From: an uncultured virus (IMG/VR IMGVR_UViG_3300033067_001366)
Lineage: Duplodnaviria; Heunggongvirae; Uroviricota; Caudoviricetes
DNA: 64,000 bases
Direction: 5' to 3' (one strand)
Virus record (IMG/VR): IMGVR_UViG_3300033067_001366
Below are positions 2,957-58,342 of this stretch, one piece after another; the stretch's first letter is position 1; each line of letters starts with the position of its first letter. The notes beneath the pieces were generated by a model. The model made no database searches. It was not told the origin of the DNA and was given only the letters and a program-made list of their open reading frames with translations. The position numbers were made by a program, and so were the translations under genes.

Positions 2957-3097
2957 CGACGAAATACCTAATCAACAACAAGCGCGGCGAGTACCTGCTG
3001 GCGCCCGTCATACTCGACGAGTGGTTGGAAGGGAAGTGCAAGCGGGGACTAGAAAAGCCCGGCGGATCGCCACTGGTCCGTCGGGCAGGGGAGTGTT

Positions 3098-3493: not shown

Positions 3494-3706
3494 TAACGCA
3501 TTCGCTTAGGCCTCGCGACTGATCGAGTCTGTATGGCCGTCTGATCGAAGCGATCGTCCTACCTAATCTACGTTCGCTTCGATCTTCATTCGCGCAATCC
3601 AACCCCGCACGCGACGTTTGGTGCCCCTCGGTCGCGTGAACCAAATTTACTATCGAGCTGCCCTGAGCTCGCATCGCGCTGTCATTTTTGGCGCAATGGT
3701 ATAAGT

Positions 3707-6393: not shown

Positions 6394-7443
6394 ATGTTCA
6401 GACAACGTGTTCTTACTTACCTGGGTGTTATCATCGCTGTTTCTGGCGCGGTCGCCGGTCATCTTCAGACGATCAGTCCGACCGCTGCCTTGTGGGTAAT
6501 CCTGATCGGCGCGCTTGCCACTGCGGCTGGTGGCGCAGTTACTAAATTTCTGGAATCCAATCGCGCTGTGACGGTCACGGGCGTGCTGGTTGCTGTGCTG
6601 GGCGTGCTCGGCCAGGCGTCCAATCTGATCGGCAACAAGTGGGCGCAGGTGGCCGTGATTGTCGGCGCGGCCTTTACTGCGATTGGCAAATCTCTTTTCG
6701 GATGGACCGACGATGCGCCTGTTATCGGCTCCGGCGTTCCGACTCGGAGCGCTTTCGGTCTGTTGCTGATCTTTGCGCTGGGGTTCAGTTCTGTGGCCTG
6801 CAATTTCAAGAAGGTGGAGCGACCGCTGACCTCGGCCGGTTATAACTTCCAGATCACGATTCTGGCAGCCGCGCGGACGACTGGCGCGATTCGTGAGTTG
6901 AAGCCTGGTTCGATCCAGGACGATAAGGCGCGCACGCTGTTCGAGTCGTTGCAGAAAACTAGCCAAATTGGCCAAGGCTTCTCCCAGGCAATTGATAAGA
7001 CTGTCGAGGTGAATCCGCAGAGCAAGGTCGCGCTGCTGGACGAGGCCGAGCGCTATCTCAAGCAGGTGGACTCGACGATCGCTTTAATTGATTCGAGTAA
7101 TACTCGGCTCCGCAATGGCCTGCTGGTTGTGCGAGAGATTGCGGTCGCATTCAAGCTCTCGATCGCTGCGATTGAGATCACCACGCCGACGCAGAAGGTT
7201 CTGGCCGACGTCACTAAGGCGAAGGGTATTGCCGTCACAACCTCCGGGACGCGTGATATCAACGACACGGTCGCCCTGGTGAATGCGCTGGGCGTGATCT
7301 CCGCTGATTTCGCTGCCGACGTGGTAGCTCAGAAGGGGCTAGATGTGGCGGCGCTCAGGTCCCTGCGTGATGCCAAGTATAACGCGGTTCAATCTTATAT
7401 TGCCGAGCAGCTTGCCAAGATTCCGGCACCATCGAAGCTGTAA
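6394..7443 (+). CDS. Membrane protein: about 4 TM helices, internal lipoprotein signal, helical domain (holin/spanin-like candidate)
   Basis: AAGGAG RBS; two repeated TM hairpins; RSAFGLLLIFALGFSSVA-C lipobox-like segment. Confidence 0.65.
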   Translation: MFRQRVLTYLGVIIAVSGAVAGHLQTISPTAALWVILIGALATAAGGAVTKFLESNRAVTVTGVLVAVLGVLGQASNLIGNKWAQVAVIVGAAFTAIGKSLFGWTDDAPVIGSGVPTRSAFGLLLIFALGFSSVACNFKKVERPLTSAGYNFQITILAAARTTGAIRELKPGSIQDDKARTLFESLQKTSQIGQGFSQAIDKTVEVNPQSKVALLDEAERYLKQVDSTIALIDSSNTRLRNGLLVVREIAVAFKLSIAAIEITTPTQKVLADVTKAKGIAVTTSGTRDINDTVALVNALGVISADFAADVVAQKGLDVAALRSLRDAKYNAVQSYIAEQLAKIPAPSKL

Positions 7444-8697: not shown

Positions 8698-9188
8698 TGC
8701 CGGCAAAAAAGCCAACCAAGAAGCTGGCCAAGGAAGCGCCCAGGCTGGTCAAGAAGGCCTCCAAGAAGGCTTCAGGCAAACCGGCTAATGCCCGCTCTCG
8801 ATCTGGCGCCAAGAATCATCCGGCCTCCGTTGTCGCGAAGGCGCTGGCAGAGATGGTTGCTGGTTCAACTGTCGCCGAAGTAAGTGAGAAGTATTCGATT
8901 CCCCAGCAAACTGTTTCGGGCTGGAAGGCGCTTTTGCCACCCGAACTCGGTGAAACTCGGACAAAAAGAGAGACCGTTGAGGAATTGCTTTCGATCTATC
9001 TGGAGAAGATATTGCGGGCGAACATTGCCCAGCTAGACGTGTTCGCCAATGCCGATTGGATTCAAAGGCAACGAGCCTCCGAGCTTGCCATCCTTCAGGG
9101 CGTCCTTTTCGACAAGGCAATTCGAATTTTCGACGCCGCGCGAAGAGGAGAGCAACAGCCTCAGCAGTTACAACCAGCTCCGGGTTAA
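8697..9188 (+). CDS. terS: Terminase small subunit
   Basis: HTH (STVAEVSEKYSIPQQTVSGWK); directly upstream of terL. Confidence 0.75.
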   Translation: MPAKKPTKKLAKEAPRLVKKASKKASGKPANARSRSGAKNHPASVVAKALAEMVAGSTVAEVSEKYSIPQQTVSGWKALLPPELGETRTKRETVEELLSIYLEKILRANIAQLDVFANADWIQRQRASELAILQGVLFDKAIRIFDAARRGEQQPQQLQPAPG

Positions 9189-12159: not shown

Positions 12160-12524
12160 TGGAAAACTGGAACACGCTTGGTCAGAAGCTTCTCAGCTCC
12201 TTTCCGGTTGAGCAGTTCGACGGAAATAAGCGAGGCCTGCGGCACGTCAAGTTCAGCGGCGATTTCCTGCGCGAGCATTGCATCGGCGCGGCCTATGCCT
12301 GGCTGGATGCGTTCAAGGCTGCGTTGCCGGCCGACACTGCATTGATCGTGACTGACGGCGTTGCACTTCGCCAGTGCCTATCGGCGTATCAGGTCGCCGA
12401 TCTTTACAGTATCACTCTGGCTAGCGAGGAGTGGCCGCCGCTGCGATATGGGTTGGAGATCCCCGAGCTGGTGCTCGCCTTTACCACCAACGGCGATGGC
12501 GTTCTGGTCTGTAAGGCGAATTGA
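12159..12524 (+). CDS. Hypothetical protein
   Basis: TAATG coupling. Confidence 0.6.
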   Translation: MENWNTLGQKLLSSFPVEQFDGNKRGLRHVKFSGDFLREHCIGAAYAWLDAFKAALPADTALIVTDGVALRQCLSAYQVADLYSITLASEEWPPLRYGLEIPELVLAFTTNGDGVLVCKAN

Positions 12525-25954: not shown

Positions 25955-26402
25955 AGCAGACGCACGCGACTTCGAGACAAATCATGCCTATGGGCAAATC
26001 TCGGCCGACAGTACGCCCGAATTCGAGGCGTTCAAGGCTTATCAGCCCGACAAGACGCTGCTTAATGCCGGCACGGCGGCGACGTTCGACCAGGCGCGGC
26101 GCGGGATTACAGAGGGAACCAGTTCTCCGTATTCAGGTGTCAATCCGGTCCTGCGGGCACGGCTGGGAGCGCTCGGCCAGCAGGAACTGGCCACCAAGCA
26201 GTCCGGCGCGCTGGCCGACGCTGATCTGGAACGCGACCGCCTGCAATTAGAGCAAAAGCGGATTGCAATGGAGTACAAAAAGCCGCAGGTCGTGGAAACG
26301 AAGACGTCCGGCTTTGGTCAGCAGCAGCAGCAGCAGGGCGGCGGCGGTGGCCTGGTCAGTGGAATCGTTTCGGGAATCGCAGGAGGCGTTTTGGCGTTTT
26401 AA
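25938..26402 (+). CDS. Small ejection (DNA transfer) protein
   Basis: Helical Q/A-rich body with Gly-rich hydrophobic end GLVSGIVSGIAGGVLAF. Confidence 0.55.
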   Translation: MSRGSKADARDFETNHAYGQISADSTPEFEAFKAYQPDKTLLNAGTAATFDQARRGITEGTSSPYSGVNPVLRARLGALGQQELATKQSGALADADLERDRLQLEQKRIAMEYKKPQVVETKTSGFGQQQQQQGGGGGLVSGIVSGIAGGVLAF

Positions 26403-27241
26403 TGGATAAAGCTTACAGCACTCTTAATCAAATTATGGAGCCGTTGATGGATGCGAAGCGTCCTTGCGTGCTCTATTCCGGCGGCCACGATTCGCAGGTT
26501 CTACTCTGGCTGGCCAGGCAGGCGCGTCCGGACGTGACGGCCGTGTACTGCGAAATGCACGAGGACGCCCGCAAGCAGGCCTTTGTCAGCGAAAGCTGCC
26601 ACATGTGGGGCATTCGCCTGGACGTCCGTCGGCCGTTCGCGCGCGATCTGATCGGCAACGGGGACCACATTGAAGTCTTCAACGCATTTCCGCTGGGCGA
26701 GTCGGTCCTGCGGATGGGAATGCAGGCAACTGGGCGCGAGACCAATGCACGCCATCTTTGCGCGGTCCGGCTGCGCTGCGAGGATCTGCCACCGAGGGAG
26801 TCCTGGGATTATGACCTGGCGTTAATGGGGCAGCGCGACGACGACACGGATCCAGCGTATGGGCCTGTTCCGGTTGGCTTGGACGAGCTCACTGTTGGCG
26901 GCGTCCGGGTTCTTTTCCCCATTCGCCAGTGGACGAATGCCGATGTCTGGACCGTCACGCGCCAATACGGCATCCCGCAGAATTGGCGTCGGTACGATAA
27001 GGCGACCGGCGAGAAGCTTACCAATTCAACGTGGGACAATGATCGTTACCACCTCTGCACGACTTGCTTGGAGCCTGGTCAGGACGTTGACCTGGTGGAG
27101 TGTCCAAGGAATGGCAAAGCCATCTACCTGGGCGATTTGATTGATTTGGAATCGCGTCGGCTGGCCTATTGGAATGCGGCGCTTAACGTAAGGAGCGAAA
27201 ATGGAGCAGGCATTCGGAGTGTCGGCAGTACTGCTGGCTAG
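26402..27241 (+). CDS. PAPS reductase-family (PP-loop) protein
   Basis: LYSGGHDS, MGQRDDD, PIRQWTNADVW; C-terminal CTTC...CP. Confidence 0.85.
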   Translation: MDKAYSTLNQIMEPLMDAKRPCVLYSGGHDSQVLLWLARQARPDVTAVYCEMHEDARKQAFVSESCHMWGIRLDVRRPFARDLIGNGDHIEVFNAFPLGESVLRMGMQATGRETNARHLCAVRLRCEDLPPRESWDYDLALMGQRDDDTDPAYGPVPVGLDELTVGGVRVLFPIRQWTNADVWTVTRQYGIPQNWRRYDKATGEKLTNSTWDNDRYHLCTTCLEPGQDVDLVECPRNGKAIYLGDLIDLESRRLAYWNAALNVRSENGAGIRSVGSTAG

Positions 27242-41966: not shown

Positions 41967-44900
41967 ATGTTCGAAGATCAAGGACAAGATCCAGTCGAAA
42001 GCTTTGGCGATTTTGTTTCGCGGACGAGCACGAGTGCGCCTGCGAAGCGAAAGCCTGCACCAGTACCAGCACCGTCAGTGCCAGCGCCTGGCAGTTTCGG
42101 AGAGTTCGTTCAGCGGTCGAAGTCGCAGCGACAGCCGGATGGTCCAGAGGTTCCTGATTGGGCACTGCGCCAGCAACGCACGATTGACGTGGTTCCGGAC
42201 GCGCTCGATTTTCGAGGGCCGACGGAAGGGGACAAGCTTGTTGACCGGGCAATGACTGCCGCTGGGGCTGTGGCTCCTCCGCCGACGGAAGCTCGGATTG
42301 GACGCACGGCGTTTGCGCGCAAGGTTCGCCCGCAGCGCTCGGCCGCGGCCGTTGCTTCTGACGATGCGGCCGCGCAGAGTTTCCAGCGGTCGACCACGCC
42401 GGAATGGACGGACAACGAGCCGTTAACGCCCGAAGAGCGCCATCAGGCCAGCGAAGGGTTCCTGGCGTCGTTGGCGCTCGACAAGCAGGCCCGGGAGCAG
42501 GAAGCCAAGGCCGCGGTCGAAGCCGAGGCCAGGCGTGCGCCGAAGGATGCATTCAGTCGGGTGGGTGGTAATTTCGCTCGGGGTGTGGTCAGTGGGGCTG
42601 GCCAGCCGATCGAGATGATGGCCACCGACGATCGTCATCCGGTTCTGAAAGAGGTTGCAGCTAAAACGCTGGGCGATATCGAAGACGTCGCGCGGGAGTA
42701 TTTTCCGCTGGACCATCGGGATCCTGCCAAGCTGAATCCATTTAAGGGCGATTTCTACTCGGCCGACAACGCCGGCAAGATTCTGACGGAGTCCATTCCG
42801 TATGCGGCAGGCACGACAGTCCCGTTTGCAGCCATTTCTGCTGGCGCTGGCGGCGTGGCGTCATTGCTTGCTCCGGAGGCGGCGGCCGCTGAGGTTATTC
42901 CTCGAATGACAGTGGCCGACGCGATTCCGGCCTGGGCCGCGCGCCGATTGCCATCCAGGCTGGCCGCGCGCGAGCTAACCGAGGGCGTGACCGGTGCAGA
43001 TCTGGTTGGTCGCGCGTCGGCGTCTGCGACAGGTGCGTCGTCGACGGCCGCGCAAGAATACGAGGCGGCAAAACGTGCCGGCATGAGCGATAACGAGGCT
43101 GCGCGGTCGGCAGCGATTGGCGCGGTGATTGGGATGTCGGAAGGCCTCGGCGCTCCGTCTACCGTCGGCCAGTTCCGTCGGGGAGCGCATATCGCGAATG
43201 AGGCGATCGAGGAGGCTCTCCAAGAAGGCTTCTCGCAGGCAGCGACTGGCGTCAATGCCAAGTATCTGACGGGCTACGATCCCAACAAGCCTGTTTCAGA
43301 AATTGCCGGCGAAGCTGCTGGGAACGCCCTGGTCGGCGGCGCTGTCGGTGGCCTGATGGCAACGCCTGGCGGAATCAGCAAACCGCACACGGCCCCGTCT
43401 CCGCAAACGCATATTCGACCACAGATTGATGAGCGGTCCCGGCTGAACGAGGCCGCGCTCGCACAAGCTGCTACGTCGCCAGCCGCGCCGGCCGCGCCTA
43501 CTAACCAAGGTGGAACTCAGGCGAATCCTCAGCCGGCCGCGCCTCCTCAATCAGCTCCGGCTGTATTGTTTCCAAATGCCCAGGTTCAGCCAGCAGTTGA
43601 AGACCTTTCCTCGCTGTCGCCGACGGATCGAGTTGCTAAGCTCCTGGAACGCACGAAGCAGATGCGCGAAGGGAAAACACAGGCCAATGTTGAGCAGCAG
43701 CTCAATAAAGAGTTTACGGAGGCCTCCGGGCTTCTGGACGCGGCAGAGCAGGGCTGGGATGTGGACCGTCCGACCGCTGAGTTGTATGTCCAAGCGGGCG
43801 CGAAGCGGCTGAAGGCCGCGCTGGGTACACTTCAATCCTCTCCGGGCTTCCAAGCGGAACTTCAGGCGGCGGCATCGGGTCAGCCGTTACCGGCGACTCC
43901 GTACACGACGGCAGTTCGGACAATTCAGGATCGCCTGGCCAACGCGGACGCGCTGGTCAATCGAGATGCCGACATTGAGCGTATTCAGAAAGAGGGCCAG
44001 ACCGAGGTTGATCGCATTCAGAAAGAGCTTCAGGTCGAGGCCGACCAGGCTCAAAAAGAACAGGTCAAGCTCCAGCGACGGGACGCGAAGGAGCAGGCCA
44101 AGTTCGATCGAAAGGCCCAGAAGGAAGAAGACAGGGCGAGCCGCCTGGAGGCTCGCCGGCAGCAGCAAGAAGCAAACAAAAAAGCGCGCCAGGTGGAGAT
44201 GGAGAACCAGCGCCAGACCGCCCAAAATGAGCGCGATCGCAAGCTTGCCGTGGCAGAGCTTCAGCGAATTTCTGCCCACAATGCGGCGCTTCAGCAGGCC
44301 GACGAAGCGGGTCGGCGCTCCCTGCAGTACCACAACGAGGGCCGCACTTCGGAGGCGGTTGCCGAGTTAGTCGTGCAGCAAAATCAGATCCGGGACGCGG
44401 TGAAGTATCTGCCTCGAACCCCAGATGCGCAGGCCGTTAAGGCTGATCTGAATCGGTATTCTGGCCAGATCGGCAATCGGATCGGAGACCTGCGCAGGCA
44501 GATGCGCGGCGGTCGTAGTGGGCGCGGCGAGGTGACGCAACCGATTCCTTCGCTGCTGTCTGCGGATGCGATTGTTAATCCGGAAGGCGGAGTGCCTAGA
44601 ATGCCGAAGCCTTACGAGGAGGCGCATTATCAGCCTGGCTCCTCGTTCCAGCGTCTGGCAGAAGAGCAGCGCGACGAGACAGAGGAGACGACGCCACTAC
44701 TGACCGCGATTCGTCGTCTGGGCGGCATTCGTGACGATGGCATCACGGGCGGCGAGCTTCGTCGGCTGGGGGTGAAAGAGTCTGGAACGACCGGGATTGC
44801 CAATCGCAACGGCTCTCCGCCAGATCGGATGCGCGAGATGCTGGCCAGTGAAGGCTACCTGCCAGATGACTCGACGGTTAGCGACCTGTTTGATGCGATC

Positions 44901-47900
44901 GAAGCCGAGATGCGTGGGGGCAGTGATACCAGCGAGGAGGAAAGCTTCGACGAATACTATCGGCGCCTGGCCGAAGAAGAACGCAACGCACAACGTCGGG
45001 GCGACGGGGAGGCGGGGAGAGATTCTTTCGAGGAGTACCTGGCTAGGCAGGATCGTCGCGCGGAGAATGTGCCGACGGAAGGTCGAGCCGACAATACGCA
45101 TGCGAATGATTCGTTTACAGAATTTCTCGACAAGCATGGCAAGGATTTGACAGACGAAGAGGCCGAGGATTTTGCCGCCTATGAGCGGACGATTAAACGA
45201 TCCCTGTCGGAAAATCCCAGGCCGTATGGCGAGCGCACTCGGCCACCAGAACCTGGTTCCAGTGGGCTGTCGTTCTCCGGGTTCAATATCATGCTTCGGC
45301 GTAATGGGGAGAAGATCGAGCGTCTGCGCACGATGGACCTCAACTCGCCCAAGGCGCAGCAGATCATTTCCGAGATCGAAGCTGACAACGCTCGTATGGG
45401 CCTGGAGGATAATCGGAGCCATCTGACGCCACACCTGGAAGAGCTGATCACGATGATCATGTCTGATCAGTTTGAGGCGCTCGCGGAGGAGGAAGAGACT
45501 CTTCTGGATCAGATCGGGGACGAGGCGGAATTACATCCCGAAGAGGATCGGCCCGCAATTGACAGGGAGATTGCCGCGCTCGATCTTGTTTTTGAAGACA
45601 AAGATTTGCTGGAACTACTTGAAGTCGCCTCCAGGGGTGATGATAATGCGGCCAGCCAGTTTATTGACTATGGAACTCAGTTTTATGGAATCACAGAGCA
45701 AACAGCCCAAGACCTTATCGAAACTCGAAGAGCAGCGCGCGCAGCTCGCCGAGAAAACTTGGCGCATCACGATGCTCCGAGGCCTGCTCAGCAAGCTCCA
45801 AGCGCGCCGGAAAAACTCACCGACCGAGAAGTCCAGCTCCTAAGAACCAATCCGTCTGACGTTTTCGACGAGCAGTTCGATTCGTACATGCACGCGATCG
45901 AAGACCTGCATGCGCGCGCCGTGCGCGGTGAAGTGGATGTGGATCCGGGGACTATCTATGATCCTGCTCGGTGGGTGGGCGTGCCGTCGGATGTGGTCAG
46001 CAGGCTGATTGAAAATAAGTCAGCACCTCGAGCACCGCTGCTTAATCGGATTCACGGTAATCGAGGGGGTCGGGTTGAGAAGAACCGCCTGCCTGCGCGT
46101 GAGAATGTTGAGATTATCAACAAGTATAAAAACGCGGACCTGCTACGCCTGGCCAAGCCGACGCGCGCCAATAGAATGAGCCGGCTGACGCAGATCATTA
46201 ACGCTGCGAAGATAACGGTCGAGAAGAATCCATCAGGCGCTTCCAAGGTTTGGATGGGCGAGGTTCGCGATCTGCTGGAGCGTGCGCTGGCTGCGCGCGC
46301 TCAGTACGAGAAGGAGAATCCGCCGAAAGCTCCGGCCGCCAAGCCTGTTCCTGGAGCCGTCGTGCATCCGGATCCCAAGCTGGACGGCAAGCCAGTGCTG
46401 GCCAGAACGTCCGATGGGCGCGTCGTGGTCGAGAATCCCGATAATAAGGGCGGCGTTTCGATCGTCAAGGATCGCTCCGGCGAAGTGGAGGGCAGGGAGT
46501 TCGTGCCGCTGGCTGGACCGACTGATCCGGCCGTGATCAAGAATCGCAAGCGCGAGATCGGCAAGCTGATGCCTTTCAATATTCAGGGCAACAAGTCCGA
46601 TCTGCTGGCGAAGGGGCTAGGGGCATTGATGGAGCGTGCAGCCAAGGGCACCCGCCGGATGATTGACGCGTTCGCTGGCTCCGGGACCTATACGCACTAC
46701 ATGCGGTCGCGAAAAATTGCGAACCAGGGCGACATTCTGAACGAGTTCGAGCCGCTCAGGTATATCGCCCACAAGCAGCTCCGGGACAATCCGGAAGCCG
46801 TGGCGGCTGAGGCCGATCGGGTGGTGGCGGATCTGCGCAAGCTGACCGCGCCGATCCGTGAGGGAGAACCGTTCAGCGATACGCACGATCGCATTCGACA
46901 GCAGGTCGCTGCCTACTTTCAGGGCCGCCTTCGGGCGCTGGTTGTCGAGGGGGAAAGCCTCAACGAGCGCGGTCGGACGGGCGAGCCCGTGGAGATGGTG
47001 GACTCGCCGGAGACGGCGGGCATATATCTGGTTCTTCAGAATCAGTCGTTTAATTTCCTGCCGGTCCAGGCAGAGGTGTCGGCGCCGACGGTTAGCGAAA
47101 ACCAGAGCGCGTTTAATTTCTACGAAGAAGATGCAGCCGCGCGTGAGCCGAAGTTCCGGTTGCCTGGGTTCGGCGTCATCAGCAATGAGGGCGGCAAGGT
47201 CGGACTGTTTGCACACGGTCGCGAGCGGATCCTGCAATCCGGGTCGCGTGCGATTGAAGCGGGCCGTCGAATGCAGGGTGTTGATGTTCGTCGGGGCGAT
47301 GGCTGGGCGCTGATCGGCCGCGAGGCCAAGGCGGGCGATCTGGTTCCGGTGGATACGTCGTATCTCAATCGTGGCAGCCAGGAGACCTCGAATTACAACA
47401 AGGCGACCGCCGAAGACGCTGTGCCGGCCATTTATAACGAGAAGGTTCGGAAGAATCTCTTGCCAGCCTGGGATCGCGGAGCTAAGCTCGTTATCACCAA
47501 TAATTGGGACGAGGGTGTCGCATCTTTCTTGCGGTCGCTAGGGTTCCGACTGGTGAAAGCCTTTAGACAAGGAGCTTCAAAAGATGACATCCAATCAGGA
47601 GGCGCGGCCGAACTCATCGCCGTCAACTTCGATCCCGCAACCGGCGAATTCTTTGAACGGCGACGAGATGATGCACCTGGCGTCGCTGCCGAAATCGTTA
47701 GCCGCCCAGCTCTCGACCGACGAGGCGCTGCTGGTGGTCAGGTCGAGTCCGGACGCCTGGCCGGACAGCCTGAAGGAAAAGATGCGGCCGTTCGCGGACG
47801 AGGAGTTGATTCAGGCAATGCAGGCCAGTTAACCGAGGAGCCGTCGTGGGTGACTGAGGCGCGCGCTCGCGTTGCCGGCGGTCGCCCGCAGCTCCCAGAC

Positions 47901-50900
47901 CAGGTGGACGTCGTCGGTTATGAGACGTATCGGCCTGGAATGACTCGTCCAGAATGGACGAACGCCGTTACCGAGAAGCTCGGCCGCGGCGCCCAGCGAT
48001 TCACAGACGCAACCTGGCAGCGACTTCAGCCGCCGCCGCCAAAGATTCACCGACGCGTTGAAGAGACTCCCGCCTTTTACTCCCAGCTCGAACGAACGAT
48101 CGAAGCCAAGATGCCCGCCAAGGCCTCCGCTGATCAGGTTCGGGCGATTCTTATCAATCCACAGAATGGTGTGAAAGCGGACGAGGTCAAATGGTCTGGC
48201 CTCGACGACTTCCTGCGGGACAAGCGGTCGGTAACCAAGCAGGAGGTTTCCGAATTCCTGGCGGCAAATCGGATTGAAGTCCGGGACGTCATGAAGGGCG
48301 GCGCTGGCCAGTACGAGAACAGCGAAGATGGCCTATCGAGGCTCATTGAGGACGCTGCAGCAGATCCAGGCCTTTGGGAAAAGCTTGACACAGGTGTTGC
48401 CTTTGACAATTTTGAAGATACCGAGGAGCGGGCGATGTATCTGGCCAGCGGGAATCCAGAGGCTGCCGGCTTTTACATCACCAACGTCGACCATCCTGGG
48501 GAGTTCGTTCAGTATGCAGATCACGTCTTACCCGGCGCGAAGCCTGATAGTTACCGCGAATTACTACTGACACTGCCGCGCAAAAAACAGGGGCAGGAAT
48601 TTGCCGATGAATATAACCGCTACTTCTCTGCATTGCATCGTAAATACGGCGACGGGGTTCGGGTCAAGGCGTCACAGTCAGAGCTTGATGAGTTAGATAG
48701 ACTGAATTCGATGTCTGAGCGAGGCGAGGGGGAAAACTACACATCGGGCCACTTCGACGATCCCAATGTGCTGGCGCACGTTCGGTTCAATGATCGAACC
48801 GATGCAGACGGCAAGCGAGTGCTGTTTCTGGAAGAGATTCAGTCCGACTGGCATCAGAAAGGGCGAAAGTCTGGGTATCGAGAAAAATGGCCACAGGCAA
48901 AAGTGGATCGGTTCACAGTTGATCCAACAACAGGCAATTTCGGTTACTGGACAGTGAGAGATGGAGATGGGTACATCATTGCCCAGCCTCCGCTTCAGTT
49001 CAATAAGACGCCGGAGGCTGCGCTGGCCTTGGTTAAAAAGTCCGCTCTTGATGGCACGCTTAATGGAATGGGCAGGGTTCCCGATGCGCCTTTTAAGAAG
49101 AATTGGCACGAATTTGCTTTCAAGCGAATGCTTCGGTATGCGGCTGAAAAGGGCTACGACCGTGTGGCCTGGACAACGGGCGAGCAGCAAGCAGATCGCT
49201 ATGATCTCTCGAAGCACGTGGATCGGCTCGCGCTAGTGCGAAGCACTGCTCCAGGCGACAACGGGCAGTTAACTCTTTTTGCCTATAAAGGAGGCCGGCA
49301 GATTTTGGCAAAAGAAACTGCCGCCGAGGAGTTACCAGACATCGTGGGTAAGGATGTTGCGCAGCGCCTGCTGGATCAGCCGGAGTCTAAGCCGAGTCAG
49401 TTTATGACTACTGAGCGGTCCCTGTCGGGGGTCGACTTAAGGGTCGGCGGCGAGGGGATGAAGGGTTTCTACGACAGGATTCTGCCAGCGTTCGCTGCAA
49501 AATACGGGAAGAAATGGGGCACGAGAGTCGAACAGATTGATGTCGGTCCCAAGGCGAGTTTCAGTTTGCGTTTCGATGATCGCCGACAGTTTCACGGCGA
49601 ACTCCTGCGCGACGATAATAATCAGCCGCTTACATTTAAGTCGTCGCTGGAGGCAGAGTCTTTCATTCAGGAAGCTGGGTTGCCTGAGATGGAGGTCGTC
49701 AGAAATCCAGACCTGCTGGTTCATTCGGTTCAGGTCACGCCAGAGATGCGTGCTTCGGTGATGAAGGGGCAGCCGCTGTTCCGCAAGGAGCCTGTCTTCT
49801 ATTCGCAGCTCGAGCGGACGATTAACGCCAAGATGCCGGCGAAGGCCTCCGCTGCGCAGATCCGGGCGATTATCGAGAATCCACAGAGCGGCGTAAAAGC
49901 CGACGAGTTGAAGTGGACAGGCCTGGACGATCTGCTGGAGCGCGGTGGTCATTTCACCAAGGAGCAAGTGCTTGATCATCTGCGTCAGAATCGCGTTCAG
50001 TTTGATGAAGTCGTTAAAGGGGCGCGACCAGGAGTCGAGCGCCGTCTGCCTCCCGATCAGATCGTTCGGCGTCTTAACGAGGAGGATGCGGACATTTTCG
50101 GCGAGCCGGTCGGAAGCTGGGGGCTGTTCTCCGTAATTGAGGTCTCCGATGAGGACGATCTGATTGTTCCGTTGGGTAATTGGCCAACCTACGAGCATGC
50201 TGTCGATGCAGCCTTCGCTTCCGCAGAAGAGGCGGGCATTGATTACGAAGAGCATATGGGGGCAGTCTCTAACACTGATGCTAAATTCTCGCATTACACC
50301 TTGCCGGGAGAGAGGGCCGACTATACGGAACTCCTTCTCACGCTGCCTGTCGAGGATCGGACGGTGCGAGAGCTTCCTGCGGGCTACAAAGTCGAGCAGC
50401 CGCGTCCGGGTGGTGATGGGTGGACGGTCTACGATCCCCAGGGCCGTGATTATGGGTACGGCGACACCAGGGAGCAGGCCATTGAGGATGCGCTGAGGCT
50501 GCTGAATGATTTGGCCGAGCCTTCCGAGGGAGTCTATAACTCCTCTCACTACGGTGAGCCGAATATCCTGGCGCACGTCCGTTTCGACACTCGAACCGAC
50601 GCCGACGGCAAGCGCATTCTGTTTTTGGAAGAGGTTCAGTCCGACTGGCATCAGGAGGGGCGCAAGCGCGGTTACAAGCCGAACTCTCGCGATCTTGATG
50701 CATTGGATAAAGAATTAGAGCAAGCGTTGAGTGTCTACAACCAGGCACTCGCGCGGTGGCGTGAGGCGACCGGCGGGCGAAATGTAGCAGTGTTTGATTC
50801 CACGCCCGAAGGTGCGGAGATGCTCGGTCGACTTCGCGAGCTGCAGCAGAGCAGGTATCCTTCGGGCAATGCGGTTCCCGACGCGCCGTTCAAAAAGACC

Positions 50901-53900
50901 TGGCACGAGTTGGTCTTCAAGCGGATGCTGCGTCACGCGGCAGAGAATGGCTTTGATCGGATGGGCTGGACGACTGGTGCGCAGCAGGCGGATCGCTACG
51001 ACCTGGCCAAGCAGGTGTCGGAGATTCGAGTCTATAAGCGATATAACGGGGACGGTTTCAATGTTAACGCGAGAGGCTTGAATGGCGAGATGGTTGTTAT
51101 GCAGCACGCAAAGACTGCCGACGATCTCGCCGATTTAATTGGCAAGGATGCAGCTCAAAAAGCTTTGGACATTATTGAGTCGGGCAATCGGCTGCCGACA
51201 GGCGAGCAGGCTGCGTTCCTGCGCGGCGATGATTTAAAGGTCGGGGGCAGTGGAATGCGCGGCTTTTACGACAAGATTCTACCGGCGTTCGCGTCGAAGT
51301 ATGCCAAGAAATGGGGTGTTAAGGTCGGCGAGACCAGCCTGGCAGATGCCTACGGCCACGATGATGCGACCATCCCAAGAGACCGGGTTGTTAACCATCC
51401 TGCATTCATTCGGGATCGAGAGCAGGGACTCAGCTACGACGATGCTTACATGAATGCCGAGGGTGAAATCTTCCAGGAGAGGGCGGCACAGCAGGGGTTT
51501 AATAAAATTCATTTCATTGATGTCACGCCGGCAATGCGTGAGAGCGTGCTGGAAGGGCAGCCGCTGTTTCAGAAGCCTGGCGCACAGGGCCTTCCAGGGC
51601 TTACGGAGGCCGATCTGCCACAGATCATTGCCGACGCCCGCGTCACGTTTAAATCGGGTAAGCGCGGAGCTCCGGGCACGGTTTACGCGAATGATTCCGC
51701 ATCTCACATCCTTCGGGCTGCATTCAAAGAGATTTACGGCGAGGACGCCGACCTGCTCAACTTCAATACGGAATCGTCCGTCATTCAGGCGATGGTCGAC
51801 GTGATCGAGAAGGATGCCGGCGACGCCTACTTCCAGGCTAAAACGCGGAAGCAGTTGCGTGCGATCGCGCGGGAGCTCCGGGCGGCCGCCGATGCTGCCG
51901 ATACCGTGTCAGTGATCTTTGCCGACAAGGGGCGCGGATTCTCAGATATTGCAAAATCGCGCCGTCATGAGTTAACACACGCAGCACAGTCCGGGCTTCA
52001 GAACTCGCGAGGGTTTTTGCAGGGGCATCGGTTCGGTCGAGTGATCGCAGATCACCTGGCTGAGATGGGTTATGCGTTGGATGATCGAACGATGGAGGCT
52101 GCGGCGTTTGTCGCTGGCGGCGAATGGCAACGGGTCGGACTGACCGAGCAACAGGGCAGGGAATTCCTGCACGATTACTTCGACGACATTGCCCGGACCA
52201 ACGGACGCGAGGCGCTGGAACGGTTTGTAACACTGGCGCCGAAGATCAAATCGGCTCTGGCCGAGGTAAAGGAGCGTTATGGCACTCAGAGACAGGATCC
52301 TGCAGGAAGCGAACGCGGCGCAGCAGCGTCGGGAGATGGAGAATCTTCAGAAGCTCGACAATCTAGCAGCGGAGGCTCAAAAGTATCTCGACGAGTCGAG
52401 CCCGGAGCCGAGGGCCACGGCCGAGCCGACGGCAAAGACTCCTCCGAACCCCGAGGGAAAAAGGTAGATGGTCGGGGGTTCAGCATCGGTCCTCTGGAAA
52501 ACGAGCCGACAGGGCCGATTGCAGCGTCTGCGTTGGGCGTTTTACAGCAGGCGGCTGCCGGCAAGAATCCAAAAACGACGCCGCTGCGGGAGATCGTGGC
52601 AGAGCATCGCCCAATTCTGGTGGATCCTCTTAAAATTCAGGACCAGGCCTTGGAGGCCATCGTCAAGGCTGGGGTCGCTCGAACGCTGCCTGGCGCGCGG
52701 GCGCTTCATTGGGCTGACAAACTAAAAGCACGGGGTCTGACGAATCGCCTGGCCAACCGCCAGGCCAAATTCATCGAAGACGCCATTGCCAGAACGAGCA
52801 GCATTATTGAGGCCTCCGAGCGGATGGGCCGCGCCGATCGCGGTGGGGCCGAGTATCAGAAAGCGAAGAAAGAACTGCAGCAGCTCCGTCGCGAGCTGCA
52901 TGCGCAATTAGCCAAACTCTCCGACTATTCCGGTCCGGTCGAGTACGCTGCTAAATACTCGAAGGCCGCACTTCTGACGGCTGCACACATCCTGACTAAT
53001 AACATTCTCGATCAGGTGGCATCATTTCCGCTTCACGAAGCGCAAAAGATGCTCGGCTTTATGCTGCCGGTGAAGGCGCTGCAAAAATGGGGCGTTGATG
53101 TCGAGCGTTCCTCGGTGGACTTCCGTGACCTGGTTCCTGCGATCGCGCGCGAGTTTGGCGCAGTTCTGCGTGGGACGAAGGATGCGCTGCCGGACATTGT
53201 TCAGATGCTCCGGTATGGCACCACGGACCTGCTCCTGGACGAAGAGGTCGCGCGTCAGCAGGCCGACGATCTGGACGAAGAAGGAAGACCGCGAACGGGC
53301 GGCGCGGACCGCTATGAGTTGGGCAAGCGCGCCAGGGGCGTGCCTGGTTTGGATCAGACGATCGCCGCGATCGGGCGCATGCACGGCGCGGCTGACGCGT
53401 TTGGCCGTCGCTGGGCACTGACGACGGCACTGACAGCACAGGCGAACGCCATCGCCAAGAAGGTCGGAAAAGAGCACGGCCTTTCCGCGAAGGAGATTAA
53501 AGACCTGGCTGTGGATCTGGCGTCGGAGCCTTCGCCGCAGATGATGGTCCTGGCGGCCGACGAAGCGAACCGGTTTATTCTCGACTTTCCGACGTTTATT
53601 CATAACGCGATTCAGACGCTTCGGAAGGTGGGATCCAGCGATCCCAAGCACAAGCTGGCCAACCTGGCGTTCAACCGCGCGCTGGACTTTGTCGTTAAGT
53701 TTGAAAAGATTCCGCTGGCTGCGCAGATGCAGTCCCTGGTGCACTATTCGCCCGTCGGCTTGATTGGTCAGGCGTACAGTGTGCGCCAGGCTTCGCTGGC
53801 CAAGAAGGCGGGCAAGCCGATCTCCAAGGCCGACTCAGCCGAAATTGCAGAGCGGTTGCGCCAGGCAATGCTGGGCACGCTGATGTGGGCTGGCGTCGGG

Positions 53901-54986
53901 GTTCTGGGCAGTCTGGGTTACTTGCAGTTTACCGGTGGCGGTGATGACCGGGACCGTGTTCGCAACGCCGAGGGCGCGCTTGGCGAGAATCCATTCGAGC
54001 CGGAGTTGGTGGTCGGGGACACGGCTTTCGGTATCAATAAGCTGGGGGTGGTCGGTCGCGCAGGGTCACTGGCTGCGCGCGTGGCGACCGCAGCGCGTCG
54101 TCGCACGGATCCGCTGACAGGCGAACAGGAGCCTGCTTCAAAGGTCGCCACGAGAAGCGCGAAGGCTGTTGCCGAGGGGCTGATCAATGACAATCCGGTC
54201 GGCCGCGGCGTCGGCGAGATTATCGGGCCAGCACTATCTGGGCAGTTCGGTGATTTCGGTCAGAAGTTTTTGCGCGGTCAGGTTCGGAGTTTCGTGCCTG
54301 GGATTTTGCGCGACCTGGCCAAGTTGCAGGATTCGACGGCACGCATTCCAGATGACACCAGTTTCAGCTCTCAGATCAACGCGGACTTCCGGTCGGGCAA
54401 CCCTTGGACGCGCAGCAGCCTTGAGCCTCGCTTGGACGCAATGGGCCGACCGGTTAAGGAGGCGAATCCGTTCCTTCCTTATCGTTCAATCGAAGACGTT
54501 CCGCGTCGGCGAGAGCTTGAGGAGATGCGTCGGCTGGGAACAGGGCCGTCTGCGGAAAAAAGAGAGAAGGGAACTAGCGCCTCTGATTTCAATAAGCAGG
54601 TCAGCAGTCGCGCGGCCCAGACGAAGGCCGCGCTGGATCGGATCGCGCCTGGTCAGGCTGTGCGCTCAGACGCCGCAAGGGCGCGCGTCTACGCGTCCGG
54701 GCTGACGAGCGCTGCAATGAAACGCGCTGACAAGCTCTCCGACGGGTCGGTGCAGGCGAAGTACGATATCGAAGCTCTGCGCGCGGATGCGTATTCGGCG
54801 TTGCGAGAGCTGCCCGCTTATCAGGCTTTGAGCGATCGCCAGAAAGAGGCCGCTCGAAAACGCGTTGATGAACGCCTCAAGGGTAGCAAGGCGCGTGCGG
54901 CGAGTTCCCGTGCCGGTGAGAAAGCGGCGGCGCTGCCAGACGCCTCGGGTCGAGACCTGGCGCGCGAGGCGATTTCGTCCAGGTAG
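41967..54986 (+). CDS. Giant polyvalent ejection protein (4339 aa)
   Basis: Ala/Gly hydrophobic N-region; Dam-like domain about 46569-47630; duplicated module 48075-49781 and 49797-51569; HELTH 51966-51980; helical C-region. Confidence 0.85.
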   Translation: MFEDQGQDPVESFGDFVSRTSTSAPAKRKPAPVPAPSVPAPGSFGEFVQRSKSQRQPDGPEVPDWALRQQRTIDVVPDALDFRGPTEGDKLVDRAMTAAGAVAPPPTEARIGRTAFARKVRPQRSAAAVASDDAAAQSFQRSTTPEWTDNEPLTPEERHQASEGFLASLALDKQAREQEAKAAVEAEARRAPKDAFSRVGGNFARGVVSGAGQPIEMMATDDRHPVLKEVAAKTLGDIEDVAREYFPLDHRDPAKLNPFKGDFYSADNAGKILTESIPYAAGTTVPFAAISAGAGGVASLLAPEAAAAEVIPRMTVADAIPAWAARRLPSRLAARELTEGVTGADLVGRASASATGASSTAAQEYEAAKRAGMSDNEAARSAAIGAVIGMSEGLGAPSTVGQFRRGAHIANEAIEEALQEGFSQAATGVNAKYLTGYDPNKPVSEIAGEAAGNALVGGAVGGLMATPGGISKPHTAPSPQTHIRPQIDERSRLNEAALAQAATSPAAPAAPTNQGGTQANPQPAAPPQSAPAVLFPNAQVQPAVEDLSSLSPTDRVAKLLERTKQMREGKTQANVEQQLNKEFTEASGLLDAAEQGWDVDRPTAELYVQAGAKRLKAALGTLQSSPGFQAELQAAASGQPLPATPYTTAVRTIQDRLANADALVNRDADIERIQKEGQTEVDRIQKELQVEADQAQKEQVKLQRRDAKEQAKFDRKAQKEEDRASRLEARRQQQEANKKARQVEMENQRQTAQNERDRKLAVAELQRISAHNAALQQADEAGRRSLQYHNEGRTSEAVAELVVQQNQIRDAVKYLPRTPDAQAVKADLNRYSGQIGNRIGDLRRQMRGGRSGRGEVTQPIPSLLSADAIVNPEGGVPRMPKPYEEAHYQPGSSFQRLAEEQRDETEETTPLLTAIRRLGGIRDDGITGGELRRLGVKESGTTGIANRNGSPPDRMREMLASEGYLPDDSTVSDLFDAIEAEMRGGSDTSEEESFDEYYRRLAEEERNAQRRGDGEAGRDSFEEYLARQDRRAENVPTEGRADNTHANDSFTEFLDKHGKDLTDEEAEDFAAYERTIKRSLSENPRPYGERTRPPEPGSSGLSFSGFNIMLRRNGEKIERLRTMDLNSPKAQQIISEIEADNARMGLEDNRSHLTPHLEELITMIMSDQFEALAEEEETLLDQIGDEAELHPEEDRPAIDREIAALDLVFEDKDLLELLEVASRGDDNAASQFIDYGTQFYGITEQTAQDLIETRRAARAARRENLAHHDAPRPAQQAPSAPEKLTDREVQLLRTNPSDVFDEQFDSYMHAIEDLHARAVRGEVDVDPGTIYDPARWVGVPSDVVSRLIENKSAPRAPLLNRIHGNRGGRVEKNRLPARENVEIINKYKNADLLRLAKPTRANRMSRLTQIINAAKITVEKNPSGASKVWMGEVRDLLERALAARAQYEKENPPKAPAAKPVPGAVVHPDPKLDGKPVLARTSDGRVVVENPDNKGGVSIVKDRSGEVEGREFVPLAGPTDPAVIKNRKREIGKLMPFNIQGNKSDLLAKGLGALMERAAKGTRRMIDAFAGSGTYTHYMRSRKIANQGDILNEFEPLRYIAHKQLRDNPEAVAAEADRVVADLRKLTAPIREGEPFSDTHDRIRQQVAAYFQGRLRALVVEGESLNERGRTGEPVEMVDSPETAGIYLVLQNQSFNFLPVQAEVSAPTVSENQSAFNFYEEDAAAREPKFRLPGFGVISNEGGKVGLFAHGRERILQSGSRAIEAGRRMQGVDVRRGDGWALIGREAKAGDLVPVDTSYLNRGSQETSNYNKATAEDAVPAIYNEKVRKNLLPAWDRGAKLVITNNWDEGVASFLRSLGFRLVKAFRQGASKDDIQSGGAAELIAVNFDPATGEFFERRRDDAPGVAAEIVSRPALDRRGAAGGQVESGRLAGQPEGKDAAVRGRGVDSGNAGQLTEEPSWVTEARARVAGGRPQLPDQVDVVGYETYRPGMTRPEWTNAVTEKLGRGAQRFTDATWQRLQPPPPKIHRRVEETPAFYSQLERTIEAKMPAKASADQVRAILINPQNGVKADEVKWSGLDDFLRDKRSVTKQEVSEFLAANRIEVRDVMKGGAGQYENSEDGLSRLIEDAAADPGLWEKLDTGVAFDNFEDTEERAMYLASGNPEAAGFYITNVDHPGEFVQYADHVLPGAKPDSYRELLLTLPRKKQGQEFADEYNRYFSALHRKYGDGVRVKASQSELDELDRLNSMSERGEGENYTSGHFDDPNVLAHVRFNDRTDADGKRVLFLEEIQSDWHQKGRKSGYREKWPQAKVDRFTVDPTTGNFGYWTVRDGDGYIIAQPPLQFNKTPEAALALVKKSALDGTLNGMGRVPDAPFKKNWHEFAFKRMLRYAAEKGYDRVAWTTGEQQADRYDLSKHVDRLALVRSTAPGDNGQLTLFAYKGGRQILAKETAAEELPDIVGKDVAQRLLDQPESKPSQFMTTERSLSGVDLRVGGEGMKGFYDRILPAFAAKYGKKWGTRVEQIDVGPKASFSLRFDDRRQFHGELLRDDNNQPLTFKSSLEAESFIQEAGLPEMEVVRNPDLLVHSVQVTPEMRASVMKGQPLFRKEPVFYSQLERTINAKMPAKASAAQIRAIIENPQSGVKADELKWTGLDDLLERGGHFTKEQVLDHLRQNRVQFDEVVKGARPGVERRLPPDQIVRRLNEEDADIFGEPVGSWGLFSVIEVSDEDDLIVPLGNWPTYEHAVDAAFASAEEAGIDYEEHMGAVSNTDAKFSHYTLPGERADYTELLLTLPVEDRTVRELPAGYKVEQPRPGGDGWTVYDPQGRDYGYGDTREQAIEDALRLLNDLAEPSEGVYNSSHYGEPNILAHVRFDTRTDADGKRILFLEEVQSDWHQEGRKRGYKPNSRDLDALDKELEQALSVYNQALARWREATGGRNVAVFDSTPEGAEMLGRLRELQQSRYPSGNAVPDAPFKKTWHELVFKRMLRHAAENGFDRMGWTTGAQQADRYDLAKQVSEIRVYKRYNGDGFNVNARGLNGEMVVMQHAKTADDLADLIGKDAAQKALDIIESGNRLPTGEQAAFLRGDDLKVGGSGMRGFYDKILPAFASKYAKKWGVKVGETSLADAYGHDDATIPRDRVVNHPAFIRDREQGLSYDDAYMNAEGEIFQERAAQQGFNKIHFIDVTPAMRESVLEGQPLFQKPGAQGLPGLTEADLPQIIADARVTFKSGKRGAPGTVYANDSASHILRAAFKEIYGEDADLLNFNTESSVIQAMVDVIEKDAGDAYFQAKTRKQLRAIARELRAAADAADTVSVIFADKGRGFSDIAKSRRHELTHAAQSGLQNSRGFLQGHRFGRVIADHLAEMGYALDDRTMEAAAFVAGGEWQRVGLTEQQGREFLHDYFDDIARTNGREALERFVTLAPKIKSALAEVKERYGTQRQDPAGSERGAAASGDGESSEARQSSSGGSKVSRRVEPGAEGHGRADGKDSSEPRGKKVDGRGFSIGPLENEPTGPIAASALGVLQQAAAGKNPKTTPLREIVAEHRPILVDPLKIQDQALEAIVKAGVARTLPGARALHWADKLKARGLTNRLANRQAKFIEDAIARTSSIIEASERMGRADRGGAEYQKAKKELQQLRRELHAQLAKLSDYSGPVEYAAKYSKAALLTAAHILTNNILDQVASFPLHEAQKMLGFMLPVKALQKWGVDVERSSVDFRDLVPAIAREFGAVLRGTKDALPDIVQMLRYGTTDLLLDEEVARQQADDLDEEGRPRTGGADRYELGKRARGVPGLDQTIAAIGRMHGAADAFGRRWALTTALTAQANAIAKKVGKEHGLSAKEIKDLAVDLASEPSPQMMVLAADEANRFILDFPTFIHNAIQTLRKVGSSDPKHKLANLAFNRALDFVVKFEKIPLAAQMQSLVHYSPVGLIGQAYSVRQASLAKKAGKPISKADSAEIAERLRQAMLGTLMWAGVGVLGSLGYLQFTGGGDDRDRVRNAEGALGENPFEPELVVGDTAFGINKLGVVGRAGSLAARVATAARRRTDPLTGEQEPASKVATRSAKAVAEGLINDNPVGRGVGEIIGPALSGQFGDFGQKFLRGQVRSFVPGILRDLAKLQDSTARIPDDTSFSSQINADFRSGNPWTRSSLEPRLDAMGRPVKEANPFLPYRSIEDVPRRRELEEMRRLGTGPSAEKREKGTSASDFNKQVSSRAAQTKAALDRIAPGQAVRSDAARARVYASGLTSAAMKRADKLSDGSVQAKYDIEALRADAYSALRELPAYQALSDRQKEAARKRVDERLKGSKARAASSRAGEKAAALPDASGRDLAREAISSR
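47584..47832 (+). CDS. Candidate overprinted small gene (+1 frame) at end of MTase domain
   Basis: AAGGAG 47569-47574, 9-nt spacer, ATG; helical product over a low-complexity host linker. Confidence 0.55.
   Translation: MTSNQEARPNSSPSTSIPQPANSLNGDEMMHLASLPKSLAAQLSTDEALLVVRSSPDAWPDSLKEKMRPFADEELIQAMQAS
52279..52467 (+). CDS. Candidate overprinted small gene (+1 frame) after HExxH domain
   Basis: GAGGTAAAGGAG upstream of ATG; MALRDRILQEANAAQQRREMENLQKLDNLAAEAQKYLDE over a G/S/R/E linker. Confidence 0.55.
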   Translation: MALRDRILQEANAAQQRREMENLQKLDNLAAEAQKYLDESSPEPRATAEPTAKTPPNPEGKR

Positions 54987-56271: not shown

Positions 56272-56643
56272 TTACTTCAAAATTCCGGCTCCGGCGCGAG
56301 TTTGAGAAAATTGATTTTTATTTTCTAAATTCCCAGGAATGGCCTTACTGCTCACCTCGCGGGTCACCAGGCTAATCTCAGACACCACCGTATGCCTGGT
56401 GATGTTCCCGGCCTCGCTACGGACATAAACATCCATGCGTTCAATCTGGCCATCGCCGTGCGAGCATTGAAGCTCCAGATACCTCTCTGCGGCGGCTCGT
56501 GCACTGCTGGCACTGATTCTTCGATACCAGTCAATGGCATCAAGTTCCGCTTGGGCTAGCTCGTTGATCTCTCGGTGGTCAGAGTCGTCGAACCACTCCG
56601 CTCGGTTGATTGCGTGGAAAGTTAATGGTTTCTGATTAGACAT
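56272..56643 (-). CDS. Hypothetical protein
   Basis: Coupled to parB end; GGAGAA RBS. Confidence 0.55.
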   Translation of the reverse strand: MSNQKPLTFHAINRAEWFDDSDHREINELAQAELDAIDWYRRISASSARAAAERYLELQCSHGDGQIERMDVYVRSEAGNITRHTVVSEISLVTREVSSKAIPGNLENKNQFSQTRAGAGILK

Positions 56644-58342
56644 GTGTGCGCTTCTCCTTTTCCCCGAGCTTCTTCGCAGGCTTTTTCCCCGGTGCATTCT
56701 TTGGCTTGGCTTTGTCTTTCAGTGCCTGGAGGTGGGCTGCGCGCAGCGCCTTCAAGTCAATGTTGAAGACCTCGAACGCCGCATCCATCGCCTTCTTCTT
56801 TGTGCCCCCAAGATCGTAATGGCCCAGTCGTATCAAGCTGATAATCAGACAGCCGACATAAGCTTCCTCTTCAGTAGCTTCGGCCAACCACTTGTTCGTC
56901 GCGTCAGACATGCCGCCCTGGAATTGGCCTTTCGGAACCTCGATCTCCATCGCCTTCGTGAAGACCTTCAGATCGTCGTCCCAAACCTGACCAAGGTATC
57001 CGACGGCGAGCGAGCGCCAGATGGTGCGCTGCGCCGGCGTCGCGAATTTCGGTACAGTGCTTTGGGCCGAAATTCTGGCGACTTGCAGTGCTTCGAGAAA
57101 GCCGAGCCGGTCGGCCTTCTGTTGCATCTCTCGTTTTTTCTCGGAATCGCTTTTCTGATTGTGCGATCCGTCGACAAGCGTAGTCAGACTGCCGGCGTCA
57201 CTCTTAATGCCCAATTTCTTGAGTGCCTCACTTACCTGGGCTTTGGGATAGAGATTGCGAACCGCACCAGTGGGGTCCACGACGACGACTGGCTCCACTT
57301 CCTTGCCGACGAGTTTTAGATAGCTGGTGCCCTTGCTGGCTGGTTTACTTCGATCAAGGAGCTTGTCTTTAACGTCCACGTATTGAGAGCCATGAGCGAT
57401 CGTGCCGTGGCCGTAGGGGAAGATGGCCTTGGCTTCCCTGTCGCTCAGCACTTTCAGGTTTTTGGCCCGAGCTTCTTCAATTGTTCGCTTCCGAAAGGCA
57501 TCTTTTTTGGTGGCGAAACATTTTGTGTTTAGGCAGAGATTCTTCTCTTTCATCTCTTCGAAGAGTTCCTGCTGATTGCCGGACCGGTGTGGGCATTTGC
57601 CGCAGGCACCAGCTTCTGGCACCAACATCACGTCCTCGGTCGGGAATGGCGCGCGCGACAGTTCAGTCATAAAACTGCGCTGAATCAGTGCAAGGGTTTC
57701 GGACGGGCCGAAAGGCTTGTGATCTGTGCTCCAGCTACCCTTGAGCACGGCTTCCGTCGCTTCGCCTCTGAGTTTCTCGTCCGGAATGCGGCTGAGATGA
57801 ACAGCCGAGCCGAGTGGTAGAGTCCCGGCTTCGATTGCGTCGAGGGCTTTCTTCGGAAGATCCAGCAGCCGAATGCGCTGGCCGACTGTCCTGGCCGATA
57901 GCCCTATCTTGGCGGCCGCATCCTCGGTGGAGTAATTGAACCGTTCAATTAAAGTTTTAATACCTCTTCCCTCTTCGACTGGAGTTAAGTTGGCGCGCTG
58001 CGCGTTCTCAATGATCGCGATCTCTGCTGCCTCCTGGTCACTGAGAGCGCGGATAATCGCGGGGACAGCTTCGAGGCCTGCCATCTTTGAAGCGCGCCAG
58101 CGGCGTTCGCCCGCGACGATTTCAAATATTTGTCTTGTAGTTGCACTGTCCAGACCTGCGAATGCTTTGACGATTGAGTTCTCTTCGGCGGATTGAAATG
58201 GCCTGACAAGGATCGGCTCCAACACGCCCTTCTGCCGGATGGAGTTGGCCAGTTCGGCGAGCTTTACGTCGTCGAAGTAAACTCGCGGGTTGTAGGCGGA
58301 AGCCTGAATGAGGCTGATATTGATTTCTCGAGATTGTTCCAC
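56636..58342 (-). CDS. parB: ParB/RepB/Spo0J-family protein with long C-terminal extension
   Basis: NPR..F, LANSIRQKGVLEPILVRP, IVAGERRWRA, ENAQRANL, HTH, CGKC...CLNTKC. Confidence 0.9.
   Translation of the reverse strand: MEQSREINISLIQASAYNPRVYFDDVKLAELANSIRQKGVLEPILVRPFQSAEENSIVKAFAGLDSATTRQIFEIVAGERRWRASKMAGLEAVPAIIRALSDQEAAEIAIIENAQRANLTPVEEGRGIKTLIERFNYSTEDAAAKIGLSARTVGQRIRLLDLPKKALDAIEAGTLPLGSAVHLSRIPDEKLRGEATEAVLKGSWSTDHKPFGPSETLALIQRSFMTELSRAPFPTEDVMLVPEAGACGKCPHRSGNQQELFEEMKEKNLCLNTKCFATKKDAFRKRTIEEARAKNLKVLSDREAKAIFPYGHGTIAHGSQYVDVKDKLLDRSKPASKGTSYLKLVGKEVEPVVVVDPTGAVRNLYPKAQVSEALKKLGIKSDAGSLTTLVDGSHNQKSDSEKKREMQQKADRLGFLEALQVARISAQSTVPKFATPAQRTIWRSLAVGYLGQVWDDDLKVFTKAMEIEVPKGQFQGGMSDATNKWLAEATEEEAYVGCLIISLIRLGHYDLGGTKKKAMDAAFEVFNIDLKALRAAHLQALKDKAKPKNAPGKKPAKKLGEKEKRTHV

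Follow-up and report, generated by a model that had tools for sequence, protein, structure and literature searches.

A conserved +1-frame gene nested at the end of the methyltransferase domain in a giant phage polyvalent-type gene

In the 64,000-nucleotide stretch of DNA from an uncultured member of the Caudoviricetes analyzed here (IMG/VR IMGVR_UViG_3300033067_001366; the window), an 82-aa gene at 47584..47832 on the + strand is nested in the +1 frame of a giant phage polyvalent-type gene of 4339 aa (41967..54986, + strand, from the ORF list), and we hold with high confidence that it is a real functional gene. Comparison with homologues establishes, at the level of sequence, that this +1 gene is conserved, that its start is built into the coding sequence of a methyltransferase (MTase) domain, and that the host frame is relaxed over the nested gene. 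The same comparisons establish that this partner gene stays linked to the MTase through domain shuffling and is lost occasionally.

The window is a temperate phage region with integrase, ParB, replication initiator, terminase and portal genes, and PHROG matches to the terminase (E 3.8e-9 at 9049) and the portal (E 8e-4 at 12926) lie upstream of the giant gene. The window also holds a caspase-domain gene (5559-6386), a PAPS-reductase-domain gene (26402-27241) and a long ParB gene (56636-58342). In the main text of Iyer et al. 2017 (PMC5512222), phage polyvalent proteins are giant multi-enzyme proteins encoded among portal and terminase late genes. The setting of the giant gene is the same: it lies near the late genes of a portal-terminase phage, and several unrelated enzymatic domains occur in one chain, namely an MTase fold, an HExxH domain and a duplicated domain. 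A Pfam search of the 4339-aa protein itself gave 0 matches, and the gene was assigned to the polyvalent class on the basis of the ART-PolyVal, LPD23, LPD37, LPD38 and SLT domains of proteins that have its MTase in common; InPase, GGDEF and helicase domains are likewise carried by its relatives. The words 'overlap', 'linker', 'disordered' and 'low complexity' are absent from the main text of PMC5512222, which describes no out-of-frame nested genes. The duplicated domain measures ~570 aa, has no assigned function and lies at ~48070-49770 and ~49790-51575 of the window; three copies are present in the related protein P0002, and at least 600 relatives occur in viral contigs.

Based on a structure model (pLDDT 85.7) and Foldseek, host residues 1528-1898 (46548..47660, + strand) form an MTase domain of the Dam-family fold. 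The best matches are 7m6b (E 2.7e-8) and DpnM (2dpm, E 9e-8), and E. coli and T4 Dam are also matched; 7m6b, labeled 'Mcbe1', is presumably M.CbeI. The fold and the SAM-binding motif (DAFAG at 46665) are common to the domain and these alpha-class MTases, whereas the domain is only 11-15% identical to them, is embedded in a giant protein and has DTSY as motif IV (47352-47363). In Dam-family MTases, in the usual motif nomenclature, the catalytic motif IV is DPPY. DTSY is also present in close relatives, and other homologues carry DPSY, DSSY or DPDY. Because motif IV is non-canonical, the activity and toxicity of this MTase are putative. A stand-alone relative of the domain matched the Pfam family MethyltransfD12 (E 3.3e-9). 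To our knowledge, no such partner gene has been described for Dam-family MTases.

The first-pass annotation had described an AAGGAG, a nine-nucleotide spacer and an ATG opening an 82-codon +1 ORF over an R/G/A-rich host linker, and all of these, together with the quoted peptide and linker sequences, are present. The Shine-Dalgarno (SD) sequence (47569..47574, + strand) lies in a variable loop ahead of the last strand of the MTase, the ATG is at 47584, and the TAA ends at 47832. The first ~26 codons of the nested gene overlap this last strand, and the host frame dictates their sequence. Residues ~24-73 make up the folded part, a helical core with invariant L-P, E, W-P and K, and the whole peptide is acidic (pI 4.5). 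Over the same DNA, the poorly conserved R/G/A-rich linker of the host frame (47661..47831, + strand) is the read-through of the nested gene. The peptide model consists of four helices (pLDDT 67), and its best structural match was to an HRDC domain (Z 4.5, not significant; rmsd 3.1, 59 aligned). No family was found for the peptide in Pfam, PHROGs, NCBIfam, ESM Atlas, BFVD or the PDB, and no match was found among annotated phages and plasmids. Matches to CagY and leucine-rich-repeat proteins were set aside as sums of weak repeat matches (best stretch E 0.37). A scan of window positions 47000-48000 for sigma-70 promoters gave none.

The ribosome-binding site and the ORF length are by themselves at chance level. 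The 48 giant genes contain three +1 ORFs of at least 80 codons with a 6-nt SD and an ATG, and 60 synonymous shuffles average 2.7. At this site, SD, ATG and length occurred together in 0.0013 of 20,000 recodings, a figure computed after the fact. A codon-phase screen misses the ORF; within host residues 1861-1950, base use at the third position nevertheless shifts, with A increasing to 0.32-0.35 and G decreasing to 0.07-0.10. What sets the ORF above chance is its homologues, in which peptide, start position and frame are conserved. In L001, a 3184-aa giant with an MTase 47% identical to that of the window, a 67-aa +1 ORF opens at the same place with GGAG-N6-ATG. The two peptides are identical at 24 of 63 positions (38%, E 2e-12), to which the host-dictated N-terminus contributes, the cores being 30% identical; the host-frame linkers barely align (E 0.039). 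In L008, the MTase has its own stop and further stops interrupt the host frame across the partner. The peptide is intact there as an ordinary gene, starts with AAGGGGG-N6-GTG in the same loop as in the window, and matches the L001 peptide at E 3e-12. Additionally, L012-L014, whose MTases are 33% identical, contain an AGGA-N7-ATG +1 ORF with a partial match that includes the W-P motif (E 0.004). The expectation that the +1 ORF and its ribosome-binding site recur in homologues held for L001, L008 and L012-L014; beside the MTases of P0004-P0006, L007 and L096 the partner is absent.

A profile search over 46 candidates picked out 7 database proteins, 53-82 aa long, with E values of 1.6e-15 or lower. 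The called protein P0084 has the same start, stop and length as the nested peptide and is 79% identical to it, and it is compatible with the host-frame protein P0002 on one DNA at all 83 codons; 4 codons of this reconstruction are ambiguous, and two positions were confirmed in sequencing-run contigs. For the core, comparison with this close relative gave a pN/pS of 0.44 in the +1 frame and 1.62 in the host frame, on one pair with 28 differences. In the N-terminal overlap, 5 of 5 changes are silent for the MTase. The linker is identical to that of P0002 at 36 of 56 residues, and the whole aligned protein at 3366 of 3743. Similarly, at a contig end from run X2, 8 of 10 residues are identical in the +1 frame, with 5 codons changed silently, against 2 of 9 in the host frame (counted by eye). 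A substitution-class test on proteins alone gave 9/17 against 102/270 (p 0.16), and none of the three regions was significant. We also scored the +1 frame implied by the host-frame sequences of 82 proteins, 59 of which have enough sequence behind the domain, against up to 500 sampled background windows each. The profile signal peaks at the MTase end in 11 of these 59 homologues, at 9-45 bits, whereas no background window exceeded 5.9. For P0001-P0003, the window and P0084 rows were omitted from the profile, and the score of P0007 is circular.

These data bear on two explanations in which the peptide itself would have no function. The ORF could be the decayed relic of a gene that the giant frame swallowed, or it could have arisen by chance, as the chance-level SD, ATG and length and the failed codon-phase screen would allow. 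However, it is open and conserved across deep divergence, and with P0084 and the pN/pS of 0.44 in addition, this explanation is largely refuted and we consider it very improbable. Alternatively, ribosomes in the +1 frame could tune the translation of the giant gene or the stability of its mRNA, the peptide being irrelevant, which would account for the conserved position of SD and start. Against this stand the invariant L-P, E, W-P and K, the purifying selection on the peptide, and the persistence of the gene in L008 after the host frame had stopped; a role in translation alone is thus scarcely likely.

The supposition of the first-pass annotation that the nested gene travels with the MTase domain is borne out: the two are linked across giant proteins in which the domains flanking the MTase differ. 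Partner-less MTases also exist. P0004-P0006 have neither the linker nor a +1 signal, yet retain DAFxG and DTSY; these are known as proteins only, and an unlinked copy of the partner is possible. Behind the stand-alone MTases of L007 and L096 there is no partner, and in L010 a stop-broken partner remnant sits at exactly the partner position, the sole match in that genome. Since these MTases have intact-looking motifs, the partner is not an obligatory antitoxin. In a tree of 68 MTase domains, built by a quick method with a midpoint root, the stand-alone forms group together (support 98) within a larger group of 19 (support 97), the rest of which is mostly giant-embedded, nested forms, and P0004-P0006 are sister to the group of the window. 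This placement of stand-alone and partner-less MTases makes it likelier that the nested arrangement is ancestral in this MTase group and that release and losses followed. Several minor features of the stand-alone loci were observed. The C-terminal tails of P0013, P0014, P0019, L007 and L010 vary in length, and by eye the tail of P0013 corresponds to the -1 frame of the partner, as though new stops had cut an old read-through linker. In L010, positions 2479-4077 encode a stand-alone fusion of a phage-type Dam (PF05869) and a D12-like MTase, followed by the broken remnant. At ~1690-2165 of L007, a small ORF and a gene resembling a serine recombinase lie behind the partner-less MTase.

The peptide also has free-standing relatives. 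A narrow profile detected them in 4 of 401 genomes sampled from a phylum, and a wider profile in 80 of 401 deltaproteobacterial genomes sampled from a class, mostly as single copies. A strong MTase match occurred in 2 of the 401 genomes of the class sample, and in none of the 4 genomes with a free copy, which may be incomplete. We read 34 free-copy loci (L104-L137), whose neighbors vary. They represent an unnamed family of 54-74 aa single-copy proteins with the L-P, E, W-P motif and no Pfam family; in databases they are named 'hypothetical protein', and their sources include Desulfobacula, Desulfobacterium and Geobacter. When 1254 sequences were searched with a profile built from the 34 free copies alone, the window ORF came up at E 1.8e-7 and the next unrelated sequence at 0.16. 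In a peptide tree of 48 columns, 32 chromosomal copies stand apart from a 98-supported group of 9 MTase-linked and 2 free copies (L104 and L105), the MTase linkage of P0085-P0089 having been inferred from their sequence.

The free copies bear on how the nested gene arose and on what it does. Overprinted viral genes (reviewed in PMC8227390) give two proteins from one stretch of viral DNA. The nested gene resembles them in lying wholly within another gene on the same strand in another frame. However, overprinting means a new protein on an old frame, whereas here the nested protein is old, has homologues outside the overlap, and the host-frame linker is the by-product. The proposal of the first-pass annotation that the peptide is overprinted, if taken to mean a protein newly arisen on the host frame, is not supported, since the peptide is part of this older family, and a de novo overprint was rejected in view of the family, of the free gene behind the MTase in L008 and of the distant free genes without an MTase. 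The free copies could further suggest that the peptide is a passenger, a small protein that acts on the host, comes from an old cellular family and is linked to the MTase without acting on it, the nested position serving late expression. Their varied neighbors and lack of an MTase in the 80 genomes, the position of L104 and L105 within the MTase-linked subfamily, and the existence of partner-less MTases would all agree with this. In contrast, in phage giants the peptide is found solely at the MTase end, although the MTases range in identity from 98% to 33% and their flanks change, and the MTase coding sequence itself contains the SD and start, in the stand-alone cassette too. We regard a passenger role as rather unlikely.

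Instead, we propose that a two-gene cassette, consisting of a Dam-fold MTase and a small acidic helical partner, was built into a giant multi-domain virion gene. The stop-less giant frame would read the partner gene in its -1 frame as a disposable linker, and the partner, as the conservation of SD and start in the last loop of the MTase suggests, would be translated separately from them. Because this start lies inside the giant gene, the partner would be produced when and where the giant protein is, and would thus be co-expressed with this late gene. Most likely, the partner would bind the MTase and keep it quiet or folded in the phage-producing cell. It would then be left behind when the giant protein is packaged, and the MTase would act only after injection, presumably marking the incoming phage DNA against restriction. 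That the partner acts on the adjacent MTase as an inhibitor or a chaperone is a tentative reading, to which we give close to even credence. The opposite pI values of the MTase (8.9) and the partner peptides (4.4-5.5) agree with binding, without being proof of it. Co-folding of MTase and peptide gave a score of 0.15, under the mark of 0.32 and with no control pairs folded, which counts neither for nor against binding. The peptide might instead be a positive accessory subunit that activates the MTase, gives it specificity or is co-packaged, offsetting the non-canonical motif IV. The tight linkage and DTSY in place of DPPY would suit such a role, and a helper is easily imagined where other nested genes precede helicase-MTase modules, but the same DTSY is kept in partner-less MTases, and we consider an accessory subunit improbable.

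Polymorphic toxin/immunity pairs have a small gene directly behind the enzyme domain, the two move together, and orphan copies occur. The arrangement described here is alike in that the partner lies directly behind the enzyme domain and is shuffled along with it (11 of 59 homologues, differing flanks). It differs in that the enzyme is an internal domain, so that translation continues through the small gene, and in that toxicity is putative. Moreover, co-occurrence is not strict: an immunity gene would always stand beside an intact enzyme, whereas P0004-P0006, L007 and L096 are without the partner and that of L010 is broken. In Rpn systems (Zhong et al. 2023, PMC10400941), a small protein from an internal start within the enzyme gene blocks the enzyme. 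The likeness is this small protein from an internal start in an enzyme gene. However, RpnS is in frame with the long protein, as its C-terminal domain, whereas the nested peptide is in the +1 frame and has no sequence in common with its host, and the enzyme is blocked in Rpn, whereas here inhibition is our conjecture. By analogy, the nested gene would work like an Rpn antitoxin or an immunity gene, but it lacks their defining features, the frame of the former and the strict co-occurrence of the latter. GndA (PMC11230408), a frameshifted microprotein encoded within E. coli gnd, is similarly a same-strand, out-of-frame nested gene. In contrast, GndA lies in constrained enzyme sequence, whereas here the host frame loses constraint and turns into linker; the nested protein also has free-standing family members, and the cassette logic is absent in GndA.

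To extend the comparison to other giant genes, 83 loci were surveyed (the window, L001, L014 and 80 found via the repeated domain of the giant), which represent one selected family. The sample contained 48 non-redundant genes of at least 1200 aa (128,119 codons), with 168 control genes (93,832 codons), and +1 segments whose coding score exceeded that of the host frame by at least 20 bits were counted. The giant genes gave 15 such +1 segments, 14 of them SD-led, at 9 loci, and 0 in the +2 frame; in the control genes, 2 segments in +1 and 9 in +2 score as high, 0 of them with an SD start. A recount gave 14 segments, 13 SD-led, one match being borderline, while every one of 60 synonymous shuffles gave 0; the amino-acid make-up of the host is thus no explanation for the +1 segments. 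In 8 of the 15 segments, the coding signal reaches within 2 codons of the +1 stop. The nested ORFs sit behind GGDEF, RelA/SpoT-like, MTase and HExxH-type domains or ahead of helicase modules. Judged by codon phase and SD, giant phage genes appear to hold more proteins than are annotated, nested in a shifted frame.

Two homologous nested +1 genes of ~120 aa (L037 5307-5681 and L062 ~6615-6974, + strand; E 7e-10) lie ahead of the same helicase-MTase module in two different giants. Further +1 candidates from the survey are at L024 2520-2693 and 5691-6026; L031 5121-5276, 6303-6509, 7512-7679 and 8463-8651; L075 3450-3770; L020 8202-8438; L062 12459-12650; and L072 3924-4193. They lie behind GGDEF, MTase, RelA/SpoT-like and other domains, and no Pfam or PHROG family was found for them. 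We raise a wider reading, possible although somewhat doubtful, that polyvalent genes are polycistronic in two frames. Many R/G-rich linkers would then be the -1 read-through of small partner genes with translation of their own, one per domain cassette, each restraining or assisting the adjacent enzyme (MTase, RelA/SpoT-like, GGDEF, peptidase or helicase module) in the producing cell and shuffled with it, and free chromosomal copies would be host-kept inhibitors of the injected enzyme. A search of open-access PMC and bioRxiv literature found no report of nested genes in polyvalent proteins. Nested ORFs are discarded by gene callers, and annotation would then lack an entire layer of small phage proteins. 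Such genes may explain how potentially harmful enzymes can be produced as one chain in the phage's own host, and suggest that polyvalent proteins may grow by reading through cassettes and not by fusing clean domains. An R/G-rich linker, an inverted codon phase and an SD with a start together offer a simple screen, and the enzyme-partner pairs, which are ready for testing, may include natural inhibitors of DNA methyltransferases and other conflict enzymes.

Within the giant gene of the window, a third candidate in the +1 frame (45685-45843) is helical-looking with a slight phase shift and was rejected for its lack of a good SD and of a conservation signal. A second candidate nested +1 gene of 62 aa (52279..52467, + strand) is less well supported; no homologue of it was found, and P0003, P0005 and P0009 gave no signal. 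It lies behind the HExxH domain (motif 51966-51980), follows an AAGGAG at 52269-52274 with a 4-nt spacer, and scores 26.8 bits in the codon-phase screen. In L001, two protein-like +1 segments missed by the phase screen are present at 8790-8981 and 12189-12473, one of them behind LPD37.
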